A DNA stretch of 14,708 nucleotides from a virus: the UHGV virus genome UHGV-1345802; one strand, given 5' to 3'. The position numbers and the translations under genes were made by a program. Shown in pieces: positions 281-10,710 of the stretch. The notes beneath the pieces are model-generated. The model did not search any database. It saw only the letters and a program-made list of their open reading frames with translations, and had not been told where the DNA came from. Every line of letters begins with the position of its first letter. The stretch's first letter is position 1.

Positions 281-673
281 CTAATCATTTTTTACTTTTT
301 TGGGCAGCCAGTCGTCCATCTCCAGCCTTACACCCAGCATCGACAGACATCCGTCAATAAATCCTTCAGCAATCTGCATCTCAATTCGTATTGCCTTTTC
401 GCTCTTCTTTCTTGTTCTGGCAATCTGCCTTTTTGATATGCGCAGCAGATAATGAGCTACCAGCAGCGAATACTCGTCCGGTTTTTTCTTCTTCAGGCGC
501 GTAAGGCAGTTTTCGATGATAAGGCCGTCATCATCGCTGCAGGCCGGGCGAGGTTTAGCGGTGGATGGTAAAAGGCCTTTAAATCCAGCAGCTATCGGAG
601 AATAGTCCACCCCGGCGTTACCACTTGCCGCCCATGCCCCCCAGCGTTCGAGAACCATCTGAATATCACGCAT
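281..673 (-). CDS. Q: Late-gene antitermination protein Q (phage 82 / QuuD-like family)
   Basis: Translation MRDIQMVLERWGAWAA... recalled as similar to prophage Q antiterminators (QuuD type). ATG at 673 is preceded by GGAG about 7 nt upstream; the ORF-track start at 688 is a TTG. Stop TAG at 283..281. It is the last gene before the terminator, as in lambdoid late-control regions. Confidence 0.8.
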   Translation of the reverse strand: MRDIQMVLERWGAWAASGNAGVDYSPIAAGFKGLLPSTAKPRPACSDDDGLIIENCLTRLKKKKPDEYSLLVAHYLLRISKRQIARTRKKSEKAIRIEMQIAEGFIDGCLSMLGVRLEMDDWLPKKVKND

Positions 674-690
674 CAACTTTCTCCACAAAA

Positions 691-1680
691 TCAGGACAGC
701 ACACCAATCGCCAGCGCGCGATCGATAAAACGAAATATCAGCTCCAGCTGGGAGCCATACTTCTCTTCAAATGCCACGGTATCCGCATGCAGCTCGTCGT
801 GATGCTTTCTGCACAAAGGCAACACAAAGAGGTCATGCGCTTTTGTACCCATTCCGCCCTGACCGTGACCTATCAGGTGGTGGGGATCATCAGCAGGTTT
901 TCCACAACATGCGCACGGCTGCGTCTTAACCCAGCGCGTGTACTTTTCATTAACCCAGCGGCGACGTTTTGGGCGTAACATAAAAGACTCCGGCGACTCC
1001 GGATCCACTTTCAGCGCCAGCACCTTTTTCGCTTTATCCCGGATAATACTGGTGGCGGGAACCGAAGGCACAAGGTCACTTTCCCGGGTGACAGACGGCA
1101 CAACCGTCTTCGGTAATCTCAGTACCTTACGGGCTGCACTTTCCGGTAAGGCATCCGCCAGGTCATTACGAACCAGCCACCAGCACAGTTCCGGCATTGT
1201 CACAACGTGACTGTCATCAAAACCAAGATCACGGCGCACAACAGACAACACCCAGCGGGCACAGTTATCCGTTGCCATTGATTCCAGCCGTTCCGTGAAC
1301 TGGTCACGGAGGAGATTGTCACAGTGCCAGCACAGACGGATTGCGCCTGGCGCGTGCCGCATTGTGGTCATGTTCTCGCTGTGCCAGTCGGAATGAGGCC
1401 ACTGACAGCCCTTTTCACGAAGTAACCAGCTCTCAAGGCATTCCACGCCACCAGCACGACGGATCACCGCCTCATTGCGGAACACGGCCCGAACGGCAGG
1501 ATCATCCGCCAGCGGTTGTGATGCCGCCGGAACGGCACCACTGGCGAAAGATGAATAACGCTCCGGCTCAGGCTCCAGCAGGACACGCCCCTGCATAAAC
1601 AGGGGCATCAGCTCTGAACCAGGCCTGAACAATACGATCCCCATACGCGGGGCAATTTCAGGGGTCAGTAGTGCTCTCAA
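691..1680 (-). CDS. DUF968-like nin-region protein (YdfU-like) with a Cys/His-rich HNH-like C-terminal motif
   Basis: 329-aa ORF; the C-terminus CACCGKP...HHLIGHGQGGMGTKAHD...PLCRKHHDELH shows a CxxC...HH...H pattern. Position immediately upstream of Q matches lambdoid prophage architecture. Start is ambiguous: TTG at 1680 (GAGG 7 nt upstream) or ATG at 1644. Confidence 0.55.
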   Translation of the reverse strand: MRALLTPEIAPRMGIVLFRPGSELMPLFMQGRVLLEPEPERYSSFASGAVPAASQPLADDPAVRAVFRNEAVIRRAGGVECLESWLLREKGCQWPHSDWHSENMTTMRHAPGAIRLCWHCDNLLRDQFTERLESMATDNCARWVLSVVRRDLGFDDSHVVTMPELCWWLVRNDLADALPESAARKVLRLPKTVVPSVTRESDLVPSVPATSIIRDKAKKVLALKVDPESPESFMLRPKRRRWVNEKYTRWVKTQPCACCGKPADDPHHLIGHGQGGMGTKAHDLFVLPLCRKHHDELHADTVAFEEKYGSQLELIFRFIDRALAIGVLS

Positions 1681-3036: not shown

Positions 3037-3198
3037 TGGTTTCTCCACAAATTTTTATCCACGAGCGGGACTGCACTCCCTTTTCGTTGATGCAGGATGA
3101 ACTTACTGCGATTTTTAATAGTTATCAAGGATACACTGTTCATAAATACAGTATCTTTAACGAGGTAATACCCAAATTTAGGGTGTTGCTCAATTCCG

Positions 3199-3594
3199 TT
3201 ACCGAGTTGCTAATTTGCAACTCGCTTTTTCGTACTTACTGATAGTGATCTCGACCTTCCCTTCCGGGATAACCGGTCCCCACTCCACCAGCATTCTTTT
3301 CACCTGGCTGTCGTCTTCCCACACACCCGCGTGGGTCAGGGCGTCAAACAGCGCCTTGTTATAGTTGTCCAGATCGCGGATCCGGTTATCCGGAGGAAAC
3401 AACACGATCTCCACTGAAGCAGGTGCCGACGTTGGTTTCGGCAGACGACGTAACTGCTCAACTATTGCTGCACACGCCGCGCTCTGGAATTTTCGCCCCG
3501 CCGCGCTTATCAGGCTCTTACCAGCAAACGCCCCTTTGTTAGGGTGTCGCCAGTACGTGTTCACGCTGGGCGGAAAAGGCAGTATTAGCTTCAT
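3199..3594 (-). CDS. rusA: RusA-family Holliday junction resolvase
   Basis: MKLILPFPPSVNTYWRH...DLDNYNKALFDALTHAGVWEDDSQV matches the conserved RusA pattern (PPS-N-Y-R, DxDN, D-AL). ATGA start/stop overlap with the upstream gene at 3591-3594. Confidence 0.85.
   Translation of the reverse strand: MKLILPFPPSVNTYWRHPNKGAFAGKSLISAAGRKFQSAACAAIVEQLRRLPKPTSAPASVEIVLFPPDNRIRDLDNYNKALFDALTHAGVWEDDSQVKRMLVEWGPVIPEGKVEITISKYEKASCKLATR
3204..3230 (+). terminator. Plus-strand hairpin plus T-run inside the 3' end of rusA (possible antisense or convergent terminator)
   Basis: Stem GAGTTGC (3204-3210) / GCAACTC (3217-3223), loop TAATTT, then GCTTTTT. The T-run is on the plus strand only. Confidence 0.3.
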
Positions 3595-3917
3595 ACTTTC
3601 AGGCCCCTCTCATGTAACCAGTGGGTTGCACGCAGCCTTGCGTTTTCCTCACCGGCAAGCAGTGCGCGGATAATCCCGACCGCCTCGCTGTCGTCGTCCT
3701 TCATCGCAGTATGAAGCGTTATCCCCCGGGCCACGCCACGCTTTATCGTGATGACGCCTTTTTTCTCCAGTGCGCGAAGATGCTCCACCGCTGCATTCAC
3801 CGAACGGTATCCCAGCATGGTTGCCACCTCCTGATTGGTTGGCGGGAAGCCACGTTCTTTCTGATAAGAAATCAGCATATCCAGCACCTGCTGCTGGCAT
3901 TGAGTTAATGTCGTCAT
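3591..3917 (-). CDS. LexA N-terminal (winged-helix) DNA-binding domain protein lacking the S24 peptidase domain
   Basis: QQVLDMLISYQKERGFPPTNQEVATMLGYRSVNAAVEHLRALEKKGVI closely parallels the LexA N-terminal DNA-binding domain. The ORF is only 108 aa with no Ser/Lys peptidase region. ATGA overlap with the methyltransferase stop at 3914-3917. Confidence 0.7.
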   Translation of the reverse strand: MTTLTQCQQQVLDMLISYQKERGFPPTNQEVATMLGYRSVNAAVEHLRALEKKGVITIKRGVARGITLHTAMKDDDSEAVGIIRALLAGEENARLRATHWLHERGLKV

Positions 3918-4567
3918 GCCGCCATCTCCCTGACCAGTTTTTCCGCCTGCTGGCGAGCCTGCGCCAGAAATGCCTCACCACATGCCTCAAGTTCATCGCG
4001 CCCGATGTAGCTGATTGCCGCTCCCTTCCAGGTCTTGTCGAAAACAGCAATAGCACCAGCGAAGAAAGCACCTGTTGGCACCTGCTTTTCGTCTTTCGGG
4101 ATAAACCAGGCTGGCAGTTCAAAACCAATACGCCCGCGAATAAAAGCAATATGATCTGCATCTTCCGGCCACCACACTTCGCTGGTGGCCGCTTTGATCA
4201 GGAAAACATAGCGCCCGCCTTTATCACGCATGGCACTGGCATGCTTCATGATGTAACGCATGCCGGTGATGTATTGTCCCTCATGCTGACTGGCGCGGCT
4301 GTACGGGGGATTACCAAAGGCAGCACCTTTAAGCTCCGCAAGACGTTCTGACCAGTCATGTGCCAGCGCGTTGTCTTCCGCCGTGTAATACGCGGCACAT
4401 TTGGCGTTATCACCGTCAGTAAACAGATCCAGAACAAACGGGCCAAACAGGGTGTTAATTCCCCAGAAAATGTTGTCCGGCGTGCGCCACTGATCGCCCA
4501 CTTCCTTCAGTTCATGGGCTGGTTTGTTCCGTAGTTCCACCAGCGCCTGGCAATATTTATTACTCAT
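3914..4567 (-). CDS. Phage orphan DNA N6-adenine methyltransferase (Dam-like)
   Basis: Contains the NPPY catalytic motif (FGNPPYS). ATG at 4567 overlaps the upstream stop (TAATG) and is preceded by GGGGG; an alternative GTG lies at 4600. No cognate restriction enzyme is nearby. Confidence 0.8.
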   Translation of the reverse strand: MSNKYCQALVELRNKPAHELKEVGDQWRTPDNIFWGINTLFGPFVLDLFTDGDNAKCAAYYTAEDNALAHDWSERLAELKGAAFGNPPYSRASQHEGQYITGMRYIMKHASAMRDKGGRYVFLIKAATSEVWWPEDADHIAFIRGRIGFELPAWFIPKDEKQVPTGAFFAGAIAVFDKTWKGAAISYIGRDELEACGEAFLAQARQQAEKLVREMAA

Positions 4568-6041: not shown

Positions 6042-6337
6042 ACAACCTCCTTCCGCAGCATGAGAATTGTGTAGCCACGCGCAGGTTGTAGTCTGGCTTT
6101 TGCATCAATAGTAAGCGTTGCAATTTTTCGGATATGAAGATAACCAGCTCTTTCCAGTGCCAGGGTTTCCCTGAATATCGCTTGCTTAGAACAACAGCAG
6201 AAATCAGCAAGCACCTGATGATCAATAACTCTCTCGCCTTCACCGTCTGAAGAACCCGACATCAAAACGCGCAACATAATCAGGCGCTGAATCGGGTTAT
6301 CGAAAGCACATCCGCACACAAACTGAAAACAGTTCAC
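6038..6337 (-). CDS. Small HTH / winged-helix DNA-binding protein (replication-associated position)
   Basis: GTG at 6337 overlaps the upstream stop (GTGA) and has GGGAGG 6 nt upstream. ...HQVLADFCCCSKQAIFRETLALERAGYL looks like a helix-turn-helix. Confidence 0.5.
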   Translation of the reverse strand: MNCFQFVCGCAFDNPIQRLIMLRVLMSGSSDGEGERVIDHQVLADFCCCSKQAIFRETLALERAGYLHIRKIATLTIDAKARLQPARGYTILMLRKEVV

Positions 6338-6558
6338 GCCACACCTCCCAGACGCTTAAACATTTTTCCGGAGCAAAAGGCTATAAGCGGCATACTGACG
6401 CGGTAATTACGGCCCAGCGGTTCACAAATCACCTTCTGACATTCACGGTCAACCAGGCTAACACGTAGAACATGCCCTGCAGGCGTGGTGTACCACTGAC
6501 CCGGACGAGGACAACGGAAAGTCTGATTGGTAAAACGTTTGAAAATATTCCGGATCAT
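6334..6558 (-). CDS. Hypothetical small protein (74 aa)
   Basis: ATG at 6558 with GGGGG 5 nt upstream; ATGA overlap with the Rha-gene stop, and its own stop overlaps the next start. Confidence 0.5.
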   Translation of the reverse strand: MIRNIFKRFTNQTFRCPRPGQWYTTPAGHVLRVSLVDRECQKVICEPLGRNYRVSMPLIAFCSGKMFKRLGGVA

Positions 6559-7706
6559 TTGCGCCCCCTTGCCTCTGAAGGGTTCAGCGACAAATTTATG
6601 AGGCAGGCCAGCGCCGAAGCATCATTAATATAGTCATATAAGCTAACAGCCAGCGGAGATTCGGCTTTTGCCAACATAGGATAAAGCTGCTGCAGCCAGA
6701 CCTGATGAATTGATGAAATGTAGGAACAGAGAACGCTGGCGTTATGTGCAACGTCGCTCGGTACAGCAGGCTTTGAAAGCTGTTTCTCCATCTGGTTAAA
6801 GGCATTGATGTATGCCTCTTTGAACTTGGCAGCACGTTTACCCGTGAAACCCATAGCAAGAAACGCAAAACCGTCGCGGGTGATTTGGTAACAAGGGAGT
6901 TTGCGGCCTGATGCGTCGGTGTATTCACTTAACACAAAAATGTGTTCAGTAAATTCAGCGGAACATTCGAGGTTTCTAATTCTATCTAAAACCCGCTCAT
7001 GCCGTTTAGTAAAGTAATTAGCTACTGCAAGAGATGTGGTGACAACGCGACCATTGATAATCGTGATTTCAGGGTGAGATTGGGTTGGGAGAGTAGTCAT
7101 GGTGACAGCCCCTATGTTGAATTCAATGAACTCACCACCAAGGCTTTCCACGACCATATAGGTGGTGAGACGTACAGGGGTGGAAATACCGGTCAACATA
7201 GAACCCGGCCCAACCGAAGTTGGCCCTGCACGCCCCACCATAATTTGGGCGTAACGATGCTCATGACACGAAAAAACCGCATGAGCGCGGTTGTGCTCTA
7301 TATTGAATTTCGGGTTTCCACGCCCGGCACCCGCTTTATAAGGTGCCGGAACAGTGTAACGTCCCGGAATTGCAGAATCAATATGCTGGTGTTCCTTCAC
7401 ACTCAACAAAATCACGCCTGAATTTCCACAAAGGACTAAAGCACTCATGCGGGTAGTCTTTGCGAAGATAGATAACGCGCTGTGTTTCTGGCTCCCAACG
7501 AATAACATGGACATAAAGCCCTCTTCCGTCACGAAACCAGCGGTTAAGTTCCTGCACAACTCGCCCCCCACAGTCAGGTAAAGTTCTCTGTGGTTACTTA
7601 CAGCCAGGTGATTTGGTAATCTGCATTCATGCCGTAACAACAGGTGTTCAGCGACGCTGACCACCAGCTGTTGCGACAAACGGTTATTTGCCGTTAAACT
7701 GTTCAT
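6555..7706 (-). CDS. Rha-family phage regulatory protein with an unexplained ~200-aa N-terminal extension (possible fusion or two genes)
   Basis: Residues from the internal Met at 7100 (MTTLPTQSHPEITIINGRVVTTSLAVANYFTKRHERVLDRIRNL...) look like the Rha (pRha) domain. The frame is open upstream to an ATG at 7706 that overlaps the preceding stop (ATGA). The N-terminal 202 aa match no family I recognise. Confidence 0.6.
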   Translation of the reverse strand: MNSLTANNRLSQQLVVSVAEHLLLRHECRLPNHLAVSNHRELYLTVGGELCRNLTAGFVTEEGFMSMLFVGSQKHSALSIFAKTTRMSALVLCGNSGVILLSVKEHQHIDSAIPGRYTVPAPYKAGAGRGNPKFNIEHNRAHAVFSCHEHRYAQIMVGRAGPTSVGPGSMLTGISTPVRLTTYMVVESLGGEFIEFNIGAVTMTTLPTQSHPEITIINGRVVTTSLAVANYFTKRHERVLDRIRNLECSAEFTEHIFVLSEYTDASGRKLPCYQITRDGFAFLAMGFTGKRAAKFKEAYINAFNQMEKQLSKPAVPSDVAHNASVLCSYISSIHQVWLQQLYPMLAKAESPLAVSLYDYINDASALACLINLSLNPSEARGRK

Positions 7707-8365
7707 GCGTTAGTTTCTCCACAACCAGAAGCAATCGACGCCACGACGCCCGGAGCTGCACACTCGCGGGCGTTACTCTTTTCCGGCGCACAAAAAACAC
7801 GAAATAACAGTGTTAAATGCTCCTGCCACTTCGCCATTACTTGGTAGCTGTTCTCTTCGATTTGCTCACGCTCAGCCTGGTCAATAACTCCATCAGCAGT
7901 TGCCTTGCGTAAGTACTGGGAATGCTTGCCAATCCATTCTATTGACTCCATCAGCCGCTGATTAATGTCACCATTGTCAATGTCATCAATGTCCACCAGC
8001 GGCACAAACACCCCATTACAACGACGCGCTATCGCATCCGTTACATGCCTGGTACCACTGGCATCCTGTAAAACCATGGCCCACTCAAGTGGAAAAATTT
8101 GATCCCCACCGCTACGCAGTCTGTTATGCAATTGATCTTTCGCTGGGGTGATATCATCAGATTTATACAAACCAAGAATTTCCGCTGCTTCCTCATAGCC
8201 ATGAGGTAAATCAGCAATCGTTCTTCGTATTGCTGCCACCAGCCATGCTGGTTGCTTATCAACTTTCCATTCAGGTTCTTTACCCACGGTTAATTCCTCG
8301 TTTCTGTGGTTACGTTTACGCAGTTGAACCGCTAACTTTTTAATAGCACTCAGGTAATCCATCAT
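7703..8365 (-). CDS. CII-position regulatory protein (CII/YdaT-like, tentative)
   Basis: About 220 aa directly downstream of cro, the slot used by lysogeny-establishment regulators. Start is ambiguous (ATG 8365 or 8362, or ATG 8398); either overlaps the cro 3' end. Family is a tentative recollection. Confidence 0.4.
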   Translation of the reverse strand: MMDYLSAIKKLAVQLRKRNHRNEELTVGKEPEWKVDKQPAWLVAAIRRTIADLPHGYEEAAEILGLYKSDDITPAKDQLHNRLRSGGDQIFPLEWAMVLQDASGTRHVTDAIARRCNGVFVPLVDIDDIDNGDINQRLMESIEWIGKHSQYLRKATADGVIDQAEREQIEENSYQVMAKWQEHLTLLFRVFCAPEKSNARECAAPGVVASIASGCGETNA

Positions 8366-8579
8366 TTGGATTGGGGTAAATATCAGGACGCAGTTCATGA
8401 GGGGTCACGGACCAGTTTCCCAACTCACAAAGTTGTAAAACCCGTTCTGACGGGACTTGATTGTTAATTACCCAATTGGCGACGGATTGAGTGGACTTAA
8501 AACCAAAGCGACGGGCTACTTCAGATAAAGATTTTCCCGCAGCCTTTACTGCTTTCTCTGTGTAGTTTTGAGATGACAT
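8340..8579 (-). CDS. cro: Cro-type HTH repressor
   Basis: 79 aa with an HTH (SLSEVARRFGFKSTQSVANWV), divergent from the cI-like gene. ATG at 8579 has AGGAG about 7 nt upstream. Confidence 0.75.
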   Translation of the reverse strand: MSSQNYTEKAVKAAGKSLSEVARRFGFKSTQSVANWVINNQVPSERVLQLCELGNWSVTPHELRPDIYPNPNDGLPECY

Positions 8580-8649: not shown

Positions 8650-9390
8650 ATGACTAGCGCGTGCGATGTGAGTAATCTTCTACCTATGGTAGAAGAACAG
8701 AAGTATCCAGATTTCGCCAAGAGACTAAACGAATTGATGACAATCAAAGGAATCTCTGTCACTCAACTCAAAAGTCTTGTGGGCGTTACATATGAAATGG
8801 CTCGTCGATACACAATCGGCGCAGCGAAGCCACGTGTCTCTGTCATGAGTAAACTTGCGTTGGCTCTTGGAGTATCAGCTTCATATCTAGAATATGGTGT
8901 TGGAGATAGAGAGGAATGTAAGGAAATGGCAAGCATCCCCAATCCAACAAAGCCCGATGTATACAGGATAGAAGTTTTGGATCTTAGCGTTAGCGCAGGA
9001 CCTGGGACCTATATGCTTTCAGACTATGTTGATGTGCTCTACGCCATTGAGTTCACAACTGAACATGCCCGTTCTCTTTTCGGAAACCGTTCTCAGAATG
9101 ATATAAAAGTTATGACGGTAAATGGAGATAGTATGTCCCCAACTCTTGTTTCCGGGGATCGATTGTTTGTCGACATTTCCGTTCGCCACTTCCAGACTGA
9201 TGGAGTTTACTCTTTCGTTTACGGTAAGACTTTCCATGTTAAACGTCTACAAATGCAAGGCAACAAACTAGCTGTTCTTTCGGATAACCCCGCCTATGAG
9301 AAATGGTACATTGATGAGAAGTCGCAAGATCAGCTTTATGTTATGGGTAAGGCACTGATTCATGAGTCGATTAAATATAATCGACTTTAA
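8650..9390 (+). CDS. cI: cI-type prophage repressor (HTH_XRE + S24 LexA-like peptidase)
   Basis: N-terminal HTH (LNELMTIKGISVTQLKSLVGVTYEMARRY) and a C-terminal S24 domain with GDSMSPTL and a downstream Lys (HVKRLQ). The start has no Shine-Dalgarno (ATG 8650 or ATG 8686; track start TTG 8629), consistent with a leaderless cI message. Confidence 0.85.
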   Translation: MTSACDVSNLLPMVEEQKYPDFAKRLNELMTIKGISVTQLKSLVGVTYEMARRYTIGAAKPRVSVMSKLALALGVSASYLEYGVGDREECKEMASIPNPTKPDVYRIEVLDLSVSAGPGTYMLSDYVDVLYAIEFTTEHARSLFGNRSQNDIKVMTVNGDSMSPTLVSGDRLFVDISVRHFQTDGVYSFVYGKTFHVKRLQMQGNKLAVLSDNPAYEKWYIDEKSQDQLYVMGKALIHESIKYNRL

Positions 9391-9624: not shown

Positions 9625-10710
9625 ATGATTAATGAACGTACTGAAGCGACAGATGGGGTAGCAGATATGATTTCCACCAATACAAAATATTTAGTATGGA
9701 ACAACAAAGGTGGTGTAGGAAAAACTTTTCTTACATATAATCTTGCCGTTGAGTTTGCTATATCTCATCCGGATCAAGATGTTGTGGTTATTGACTCATG
9801 CCCTCAATCAAACGTTTCAGAAATTATTCTTGGTGGCAATGGTACCGGGGAAGAAAATCTAAATAAATTGCGAGACAGAAATGTTACAATCGCAGGTTAT
9901 ATCAAGGAGCGTTTTAGCAAATCTCCTTTGTCTCGTTTAGGAAATGAATCTTCTTACTTTGTACGAGCCCATGATGTTAATGCAAAAATGCCAGAGAACT
10001 TATATATTCTTCCTGGTGATGTCGATCTTGATATCTGTTCACGCTTAATATCTCACATTGGCTCATCCCCAGTAAAAGAAGCATGGAAGAAAAGCCGATC
10101 TTTGCTGGTAGATCTAATAGCATCTTTTGAAGCCGATAAAAACATTTCTGACAGAGCAAAAACATTTTTTATTGATTGTAATCCAAGTTTTGCCAGCTAC
10201 ACAGAATTGGGAGTAGTCGCGGCAAATAGAATAATTATCCCTTGCACTGCCGATGCTGCATCAATTCGCGGAATAAAAAACCTTGTTAAACTTATTTATG
10301 GAGTGTCTATTGACAAGTCAGAACAAGATGAAATGTTCTTAGATTTCAACAAAGAAGCAAAGCAAAACCTTATCGAACTACCTGAACTACACCTTTTCGT
10401 ACAAAACCGCTCAAGAACTAATGAAAGTGATGCAGCAAAAGCATTCAAATCACATGCAGAAGAGATCAAAAGAATCACGGATGACCTGTTAAATACACAT
10501 CCTCATCTGTTCACAAATGTGGCTACTTTCGAGAGAGTTCAAAATGTCAAAGATGGTAATACTCTTGCAGCAATAATAAACCATGAGGGATGCCCTTTAA
10601 GTAGGCTGCAGCATAAGAGTTACACTATCTATGGTATGGCGACCCAAGCTAATAGAGCACAAATTGAAGCACTAGAATCTGATGTTTCAACAGTAGTCAA
10701 GTGTCTGTAA
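9625..10710 (+). CDS. Orphan ParA/MinD-family P-loop ATPase in the rex-equivalent position (candidate superinfection-exclusion or defence moron)
   Basis: Deviant Walker A NNKGGVGKT, then IDSCPQSN and FFIDCNPSF...IIIPCTADAASIRG matching ParA/Soj motifs; 361 aa with a long C-terminal extension. The gene and flanks are visibly AT-rich, and no ParB-like partner was seen. ATG at 9625 (AGGAT upstream); alternative ATG at 9670. Confidence 0.75.
   Translation: MINERTEATDGVADMISTNTKYLVWNNKGGVGKTFLTYNLAVEFAISHPDQDVVVIDSCPQSNVSEIILGGNGTGEENLNKLRDRNVTIAGYIKERFSKSPLSRLGNESSYFVRAHDVNAKMPENLYILPGDVDLDICSRLISHIGSSPVKEAWKKSRSLLVDLIASFEADKNISDRAKTFFIDCNPSFASYTELGVVAANRIIIPCTADAASIRGIKNLVKLIYGVSIDKSEQDEMFLDFNKEAKQNLIELPELHLFVQNRSRTNESDAAKAFKSHAEEIKRITDDLLNTHPHLFTNVATFERVQNVKDGNTLAAIINHEGCPLSRLQHKSYTIYGMATQANRAQIEALESDVSTVVKCL

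Follow-up and report, generated by a model that had tools for sequence, protein, structure and literature searches.

The YmfL-type regulator gene beside cro in virus genome UHGV-1345802: a GTG-started relative of coliphage 186 cII with putative operators and candidate leftward promoters

The virus genome UHGV-1345802 was analysed as one stretch of 14,708 nucleotides (nt), referred to below as the window. This report deals with its regulator gene ymfL (7703..8287, minus strand), which lies next to a cro-like gene at the map position of phage lambda cII, and with two inverted repeats that bracket it. In lambda, CII is an unstable, 97-amino-acid (aa) activator made from the lytic transcript; it activates a leftward promoter straddling the 5′ end of its gene, from which transcription proceeds in antisense through cro into cI. 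The promoters associated with lambda CII and P22 C1 are pRE, pI, and paQ.

Coliphage 186 offers a closer comparison. Its CII (PF06892; PDB entries 6VLI, 6VPE, and 6VMH) is an activator whose C-terminal region recruits FtsH and RseP and which is subject to rapid proteolysis (PMC7708051). The gene order in 186 runs from apl through the promoter pE and the CII operator, placed at the start codon of cII, to cII itself and then fil, which encodes a cell-division inhibitor. The operator, ATGTTTG-N13-CAAACAT, measures 20 base pairs (bp) from the centre of one half-site to that of the other, begins at and includes the cII ATG, and is adjoined by the leftward pE. A third system involves YdaT (CP-933P), which has been described as a functional equivalent of CII in some lambdoid prophages (PMC9986795) and whose fold is described as POU-like.

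The product of the window gene, 194 aa long, is a member of the YmfL family. It scores 180.5 bits over its whole length against the equivalog model NCBIfam NF041471 (cutoff 90), is 98 % identical to a protein cluster named ‘YmfL family putative regulatory protein’, and matches phrog_101 (‘CII-like transcriptional activator’) with an E-value of 6e-63. The gene is ordinary in that its family is already named in RefSeq and widely distributed: YmfL-family regulators are encoded by the K-12 prophage e14, by SfV, ST64B, and mEp460, and by Stx2 phages, and about 2,008 of 5,426 complete Escherichia coli genomes match part of a 1.1-kb cI/cro-ymfL query. The e14 protein (b1147) shares about 56 % identity with the window protein, as judged from two e14-like loci (L048, L049), and its locus has the homologous GTG start in RefSeq as well as both repeats and both promoter-like hexamers described below. 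An immunoglobulin (Ig)-repeat protein of 2,155 aa (P0163) among the matches of the representative search was discarded as spurious.

YmfL, which has a helix-turn-helix domain at the N-terminus, a long hairpin of helices, and a C-terminal tail conserved despite being disordered, is a remote homologue of coliphage 186 CII. This relationship surfaced by fold and profile only: pairwise BLASTP of YmfL against 186 CII gave no match (the two share about 16 % identity, and YmfL exceeds 186 CII by 25 aa), and a search of PDB sequences with YmfL returned nothing but noise (Bcl-w and TAF1, E above 0.03). Against PF06892 (‘Phage regulatory protein CII (CP76)’), a Pfam model built around 186 CII, the window protein scores 31.5 bits with a gathering score of 26, covering profile positions 47-135 of 146 only, while 186 CII itself scores 163.6 bits. 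Comparison by hhalign of a YmfL alignment with 186 CII and PF06892 members gave 99.95 % (E 5.5e-38, 154 columns), in a test that is partly circular because the template alignment (A3) was drawn from YmfL search hits. The AlphaFold model, with a predicted local distance difference test score (pLDDT) of 78.8, comprises a helical N-terminal domain, the long helical hairpin, and the disordered tail. The best eight Foldseek matches in the PDB are all 186 CII (6VLI, 6VPE, and 6VMH), with probabilities of 0.94-1.0 and TM-scores of 0.42-0.68 when normalised by target. The modelled fold, a test independent of the profile comparison, thus agrees with homology to 186 CII.

Two details of the protein bear on its presumed function. 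Residues 174-194 have pLDDT values below 50, yet the segment PEKSDARECAAPG within the tail is conserved; in 186 CII, it is the C-terminal region that recruits the proteases FtsH and RseP. Residues N55, D62, and Q63 are invariant and R56-L57-R58 nearly so; they lie in or just after a predicted helix (50-57) that is aligned to the ‘LRNKL’ of 186 CII, which fits an invariant DNA target. The widespread and uncharacterised YmfL proteins are in this way tied to a well-studied activator.

The initial annotation of the locus had offered CII-like, YdaT-like, or another family for this gene and had held the lysogeny module not to be of the lambda type. The latter view stands: lambda CII is an unrelated protein of half the size, no Pfam match to it was obtained with E-values up to 0.01, and TTGC-N6-TTGC, the direct repeat that surrounds the -35 region of CII-dependent promoters in lambda, occurs once in the window, at chance level and far off (6559), and not near ymfL. 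The choice between families was settled in favour of the YmfL family with its homology to 186 CII, and lambda CII and YdaT both drop out. YdaT differs in fold family and gave neither a Pfam nor an NCBIfam match, and its operator TTGATT-N6-AATCAA is absent near ymfL, with only two-mismatch, chance-level matches in the window at 9367 and 10168. What the locus shares with the YdaT system is the CII position beside a cro of the YdaS type; what it shares with lambda and P22 is map position and the logic inferred for it.

Comparative sequence evidence leaves almost no doubt that translation of ymfL starts at the GTG at 8287, and the identity and the start of the gene can be accepted jointly with the same high confidence. 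A Shine-Dalgarno (SD) sequence, GAGGA (8294..8298, minus strand), precedes the GTG by a 6-nt spacer with a duplex energy of -5.9 kcal/mol, and the purine-rich block is kept in 79 unique loci. In an E. coli prophage 99.7 % identical to the window over the query, the NCBI pipeline for RefSeq places a 585-nt coding sequence at the same GTG (WP_000514170.1, ‘YmfL family putative regulatory protein’), and it keeps this start also in alleles with a cro extended by 8 codons. GTG occupies the aligned start position in 76 of 80 homologous genomic loci, drawn from many enterobacterial genera with YmfL identities of 38-80 %; no other in-frame start lies upstream in 52 of the 80, and an in-frame stop is met within 30 nt upstream in 30 of them. 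Among 120 homologue clusters, 96 begin at the residue encoded by GTG 8287. In megablast against phage genomes, the sequence that the window shares with phages carrying the same ymfL and another cro begins at 8310 and extends to the right in gene orientation; in phage SKA5, an in-frame TAA closes the frame 27 nt before the same GTG, and no start lies between the two.

An imperfect inverted repeat of the form AACCACAG-N14-CYGTGGG occurs twice in the window, each time as an exact match to the pattern. Site 1 (AACCACAG-N14-CCGTGGG, 8283..8311) spans the SD sequence and the GTG of ymfL; site 2 (AACCACAG-N14-CTGTGGG, 7567..7595) lies 108 nt past the ymfL stop. The arms, AACCACAG and ACCCACGG, place the half-sites 21-22 bp apart from centre to centre within a 28-bp repeat. 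When loci are aligned on the start codon, 79 unique sequences show a near-invariant (A)ACCACAG, exactly 16 nt that include the SD sequence, and GTG-GGT-AA. The start codon is thus part of an operator-like right half-site (CC-GTG-GG), which would account for the fixation of GTG across the family. Two loci (L081 and L086) instead use an ATG located 6 nt downstream as their start, and the spacing of ACCAC...GTGGGA is unchanged; in two others (L043 and L083), ACCACAG and GTGGGT are both gone.

Site 2 is present in 68 of 81 sequences (the 80 loci and the window); with one exception, these have it at +657..+693 relative to the ymfL start. Its CCAC/GTGG cores are invariant, and its spacers are variable and unrelated. 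The whole genomes of SfV and ST64B contain these two sites only. A scan of IMG/VR with the bare motif found 120 contigs, 99 of which encode ymfL, 87 of these with a motif at +650..700. With such conservation and linkage, we consider it fairly probable that the repeats are operators of YmfL. They resemble the 186 arrangement in that an inverted repeat of 7-bp half-sites, separated by two helical turns, overlaps the start codon of the regulator with a leftward promoter, here a predicted one, beside it. They differ from it in the half-site (CCCACAG-like versus ATGTTTG), in the spacing (21 versus 20 bp), in the number of sites (two versus one), and in the start codon covered (GTG versus ATG). As for L043, which has lost site 1 at ymfL, a site 1-like sequence with an SD sequence (ACTACAGAAATAAGGGGATAACCGTGGG) occurs 783 nt upstream of the gene, and this copy suggests a second ymfL-like gene or a remnant in tandem.

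Each site is accompanied by a -10-like hexamer on the plus strand, which is the cI strand. The hexamer beside site 1, TAACTT (8333..8338), defines the putative promoter P1, with a predicted start at ~8345 and antisense transcription through cro towards cI; that beside site 2, TAATCT (7617..7622), defines P2, with a predicted start at ~7629, the A of a conserved CAT, and antisense to ymfL. Initially it had been suggested to look for a promoter like pRE, with repeat half-sites and directed back through cro, and a conserved inverted repeat with such a hexamer was indeed found exactly there. On the strand opposite to the ACCACAG, TAnnnT stands at offset -28 from that motif in 79 % of 72 unique loci at site 1 and, at the same offset, in 100 % of 65 unique loci at site 2; other offsets do not exceed 10 % at either site. 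The site 1 hexamer persists where the 3′ ends of cro differ in stop position and, by inspection, in reading frame. At site 2, the conserved TA coincides with the second and third bases of Val/Ile/Leu codons, and constraint at the nucleotide level is therefore argued for. A CAT is conserved 7 nt downstream of the site 2 hexamer, as is a TAT(G) at the predicted P2 start. At the position expected for the beginning of a -35 hexamer, the promoter-proximal arm retains AA, read as TT on the promoter strand, and this explains the conserved asymmetry of the palindrome. Whether both hexamers belong to YmfL-activated leftward promoters is a tentative matter, and from sequence conservation we rate it slightly short of an even chance.

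These elements can be combined into a circuit. Once the phage infects or is induced, early rightward transcription from the cro promoter would yield Cro and then YmfL. YmfL would bind both 28-bp inverted repeats, site 1 over its own SD sequence and start codon and site 2 past its own stop, and from each would activate a weak promoter on the opposite strand. Transcripts from P2 would run in antisense through ymfL, and those from P1 and P2 together through cro and on into cI (8686..9390), so as to establish repressor synthesis and damp the expression of cro and ymfL, in the manner of 186 pE and lambda pRE. We infer here that YmfL is the binder, that the hexamers are promoters, and that activation is the effect. 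The proposal as a whole, with ymfL from its GTG, a 186 CII homologue, two operators, and two leftward promoters, seems to us rather more probable than not. A bolder and more tentative claim, to which we give a little less than even credence, is that this would be a previously undescribed form of the CII circuit, in which one 186-type activator uses CCCACAG-like half-sites and two operators bracketing its own gene to drive two tandem leftward promoters. One of these would be the analogue of pE and pRE, the other would lie downstream of ymfL and be antisense to the whole gene, and the operator overlap would fix GTG as the start family-wide. If so, P2, being antisense to the entire ymfL, would give the activator a built-in, self-limiting pulse. 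With the proposal come specific predictions of operators and promoters that would act in the choice between lysis and lysogeny across a large set of enterobacterial prophages, Shiga-toxin phages and K-12 e14 included.

The likeness to 186 extends to the gene map: in both cases, the regulator gene directly follows the cro analogue in the early rightward operon, and a cell-division inhibitor gene comes next (fil in 186, ymfM in the e14-type relatives). The backgrounds differ, the phages with YmfL being lambdoid or SfV-like and 186 being P2-like. Further CII sites exist in lambda, at int and at Q; no extra sites of the YmfL type occur in SfV or ST64B. A paper on Salmonella prophage transcriptomes contains nothing on ST64B in the ymfL region.

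Several observations weigh against the proposed circuit, in addition to the partial circularity of the hhalign test. A scan with the sigma-70 consensus called neither P1 nor P2, and their -35 regions are poor; such a miss would be expected for activator-dependent promoters. The hexamer is displaced by 1 nt in some loci. The operator centre lies at about -48 from the predicted start, as against about -36 to -38 in 186 (estimated from the annotated sequence), so that the geometry is off by about one helical turn, the YmfL site being predicted further upstream of its promoter. Site 2 is situated in a possibly coding region, the N-terminus of a ymfM-like frame, and its conservation may be partly at the protein level. 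Inside cro, there is a weak terminator-like hairpin on the plus strand (8441..8454, CCCGTTCTGACGGG followed by a poor T-run), about 100 nt past the P1 start; if functional, it could turn the P1 product into a short anti-cro RNA instead of a cI message. Finally, the literature on YmfL, e14/b1147, and CP76/PF06892 yielded no study assigning a function beyond the work on filamentation by ymfM, and in the only experiment found for e14 ymfL, its overexpression is reported to give no cell-length phenotype or filamentation.

Among other explanations of the repeats, the one that survives best has them bound by a factor other than YmfL, either a host protein or the product of a small ORF (open reading frame) between ymfL and site 2, with YmfL doing another job. 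Because the ymfM-like N-terminal ORF always sits in the same module as ymfL, the repeats are linked to both alike, and this leaves room for such a factor; so does the left half-site with its flank (GTAACCACA), which agrees with 7 of 9 positions of the DnaA-box consensus (TTATNCACA). As DnaA boxes, the sites were rejected: the motif has A or C where the consensus has an invariant T, and the T-rich part is missing from the right arm of site 2. The sites are alike beside different cI/cro modules and identical in heteroimmune phages, which excludes CI and Cro as binders, and just 35 of 68 loci have the DUF4222 gene after site 2. Moreover, 7-bp inverted half-sites two helical turns apart over the regulator's own start codon are the documented pattern of the 186 CII operator, and YmfL has the 186 CII fold. 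We regard a foreign binder as unlikely.

Slightly less likely still is a role for the repeats as RNA hairpins on the rightward mRNA, which, by masking the GUG or standing just 5′ of the next ribosome site, would regulate how ymfL and the gene after it are translated or processed. Both copies are indeed at or just upstream of the translation starts of rightward genes, and site 2 of the e14/SKA5 type folds strongly (-22.5 kcal/mol, z -4.2). The window copies, however, are no stabler than shuffled sequences (z +1.3 and +0.5). Compensatory changes were not found: four of the seven pairs are invariant, and in the others only one partner changes or pairing is lost; 54 of 60 sequences share a conserved mismatch at the outermost pair. 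An RNA structure would also leave the TAnnnT of the opposite strand, at equal offset at both sites, without explanation.

Binding by YmfL chiefly as a repressor or roadblock is improbable as well. It would mean autoregulation and control of the downstream replication-region genes with no leftward activation, and it draws on the position of site 1 over the ymfL SD sequence and start, on that of site 2 at 9-30 nt before the start of the next gene, and on the fact that both sites are in the path of the rightward transcript. Repression would not account for the conserved TAnnnT on the opposite strand, for the conserved CAT at the predicted start, or for the -35 TT, and activation is what has been documented for the characterised homologue (PMC7708051). 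YmfL may act as a repressor or roadblock in addition to the activation proposed here.

An upstream start of ymfL is the weakest of the alternatives. The initial annotation had correctly described a 231-codon ORF (7703..8398, minus strand) with in-frame ATGs at 8398, 8365, and 8362, all inside the cro-like gene and all lacking a usable SD sequence (anti-SD duplexes of -4.7, badly placed, +0.6, and +0.6 kcal/mol). Only ATG starts had been weighed, and from this arose the reported out-of-frame overlap with cro, the size of 220-231 aa, and the puzzle of a gene with no clear SD sequence. It was not the case that all candidate starts lay within cro, as the in-frame GTG at 8287 sits 52 nt downstream of the cro stop with its own SD sequence; translation from it gives zero overlap and a product of 194 aa, for which ‘roughly twice lambda CII’ remains a fair description. 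Translation from 8398 or 8365/8362 can be dismissed as very improbable, for even though the frame is open from 8398 in the window and its near-identical relatives, and gene finders gave N-terminal extensions to ~20 of the 120 homologue clusters, the ATGs lack SD sequences, RefSeq takes the GTG, the extension is not homologous among phages that share ymfL and differ in cro, it is shut by stop codons in most loci, and the ‘NHRxxGLTV’ conserved in the extended calls is the translated non-coding ACCACAG/SD motif. The comparative evidence thus favours a downstream, non-overlapping start, and the original finding amounts to an artefact of annotation at a gene that is ordinary and widespread; the upstream 37 codons (8288..8398, minus strand) are non-coding and open by accident over the 3′ end of cro. 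Annotators and gene finders mis-start ymfL in both directions because its real start codon is a GTG lying within a presumed regulatory repeat. In phage ST64B (L089), sb40 is annotated as a 93-aa fragment from 29372, while YmfL homology starts at GTG 29099 (29099..29653), inside the site 1 motif; this truncation is the opposite error to an extension into cro.

The cro-like gene itself (8340..8579, minus strand) encodes a 79-aa helix-turn-helix protein of the YdaS type (PF15943, E 3.5e-11; phrog_35; ‘transcriptional regulator’ in RefSeq). It ends in TAA (8340..8342), whereas E. coli C311 and MSB1_9I (L004 and L005) have TCA at this place and 8 more codons, giving 87 aa with the ending ...SAA that is common among cro genes beside ymfL. 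The window allele, to judge by these relatives, looks nonsense-truncated; the lost tail would have covered the predicted -10 hexamer of P1. On the plus strand, 8686..9390 encodes a cI-type repressor (helix-turn-helix and S24 peptidase; PF00717 and PF01381; a 705-nt coding sequence in RefSeq), the presumed target of the leftward transcripts.

A small gene with the DUF4222 domain (7378..7557, minus strand, 59 aa) starts 9 nt after site 2. It matches phrog_1343 (E 3e-36) and PF13973 (E 9e-14), and the entropies of its codon positions, 0.47/0.27/1.13 in 34 unique loci, form a clear third-position coding signature. It overlaps a 383-aa ORF that follows ymfL (6555..7706, minus strand) and is probably a three-part composite: codons 1 to ~50 resemble the N-terminus of ymfM and include site 2, codons ~50 to 110 overlap the DUF4222 gene out of frame, and the remainder is an Ash/Rha regulator whose own start is probably near 7397, since phrog_995, phrog_3960, and phrog_6928 begin at residues 103-106.

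A related overlap exists in the e14-type loci. The annotated 112-aa ymfM has been reported to be the cell-division inhibitor SfiC, and a conserved 59-aa DUF4222 ORF with a TTG start, not among the K-12 features listed there, overlaps the 3′ half of ymfM in a different frame. In e14 of MG1655 (L210), ymfM occupies 3823..4161 and the DUF4222 ORF 4001..4180; in SKA5 (L001), the corresponding coordinates are 3105..3443 and 3284..3463. A ymfM clone would carry most of the DUF4222 ORF too, and the product behind the published filamentation may merit a re-check. PHROGs contains a 63-aa version of the YmfM family, phrog_20047.

After the Ash/Rha gene comes a 74-aa ORF (6334..6558, minus strand) that corresponds to phrog_1153, a family matched weakly by the DUF4222 ORF as well (E 0.008). 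By sequence, the two may be diverged copies of one small-gene family placed just before the replication genes. At the other end of the region, a gene for a ParA-family ATPase (9625..10710, plus strand) stands directly downstream of cI and on the cI strand, and in a near-identical prophage (L003) it is followed by rdgC and the 5′-deoxynucleotidase gene yfdR. A parA gene is unusual in the early-left region of an integrated lambdoid prophage.

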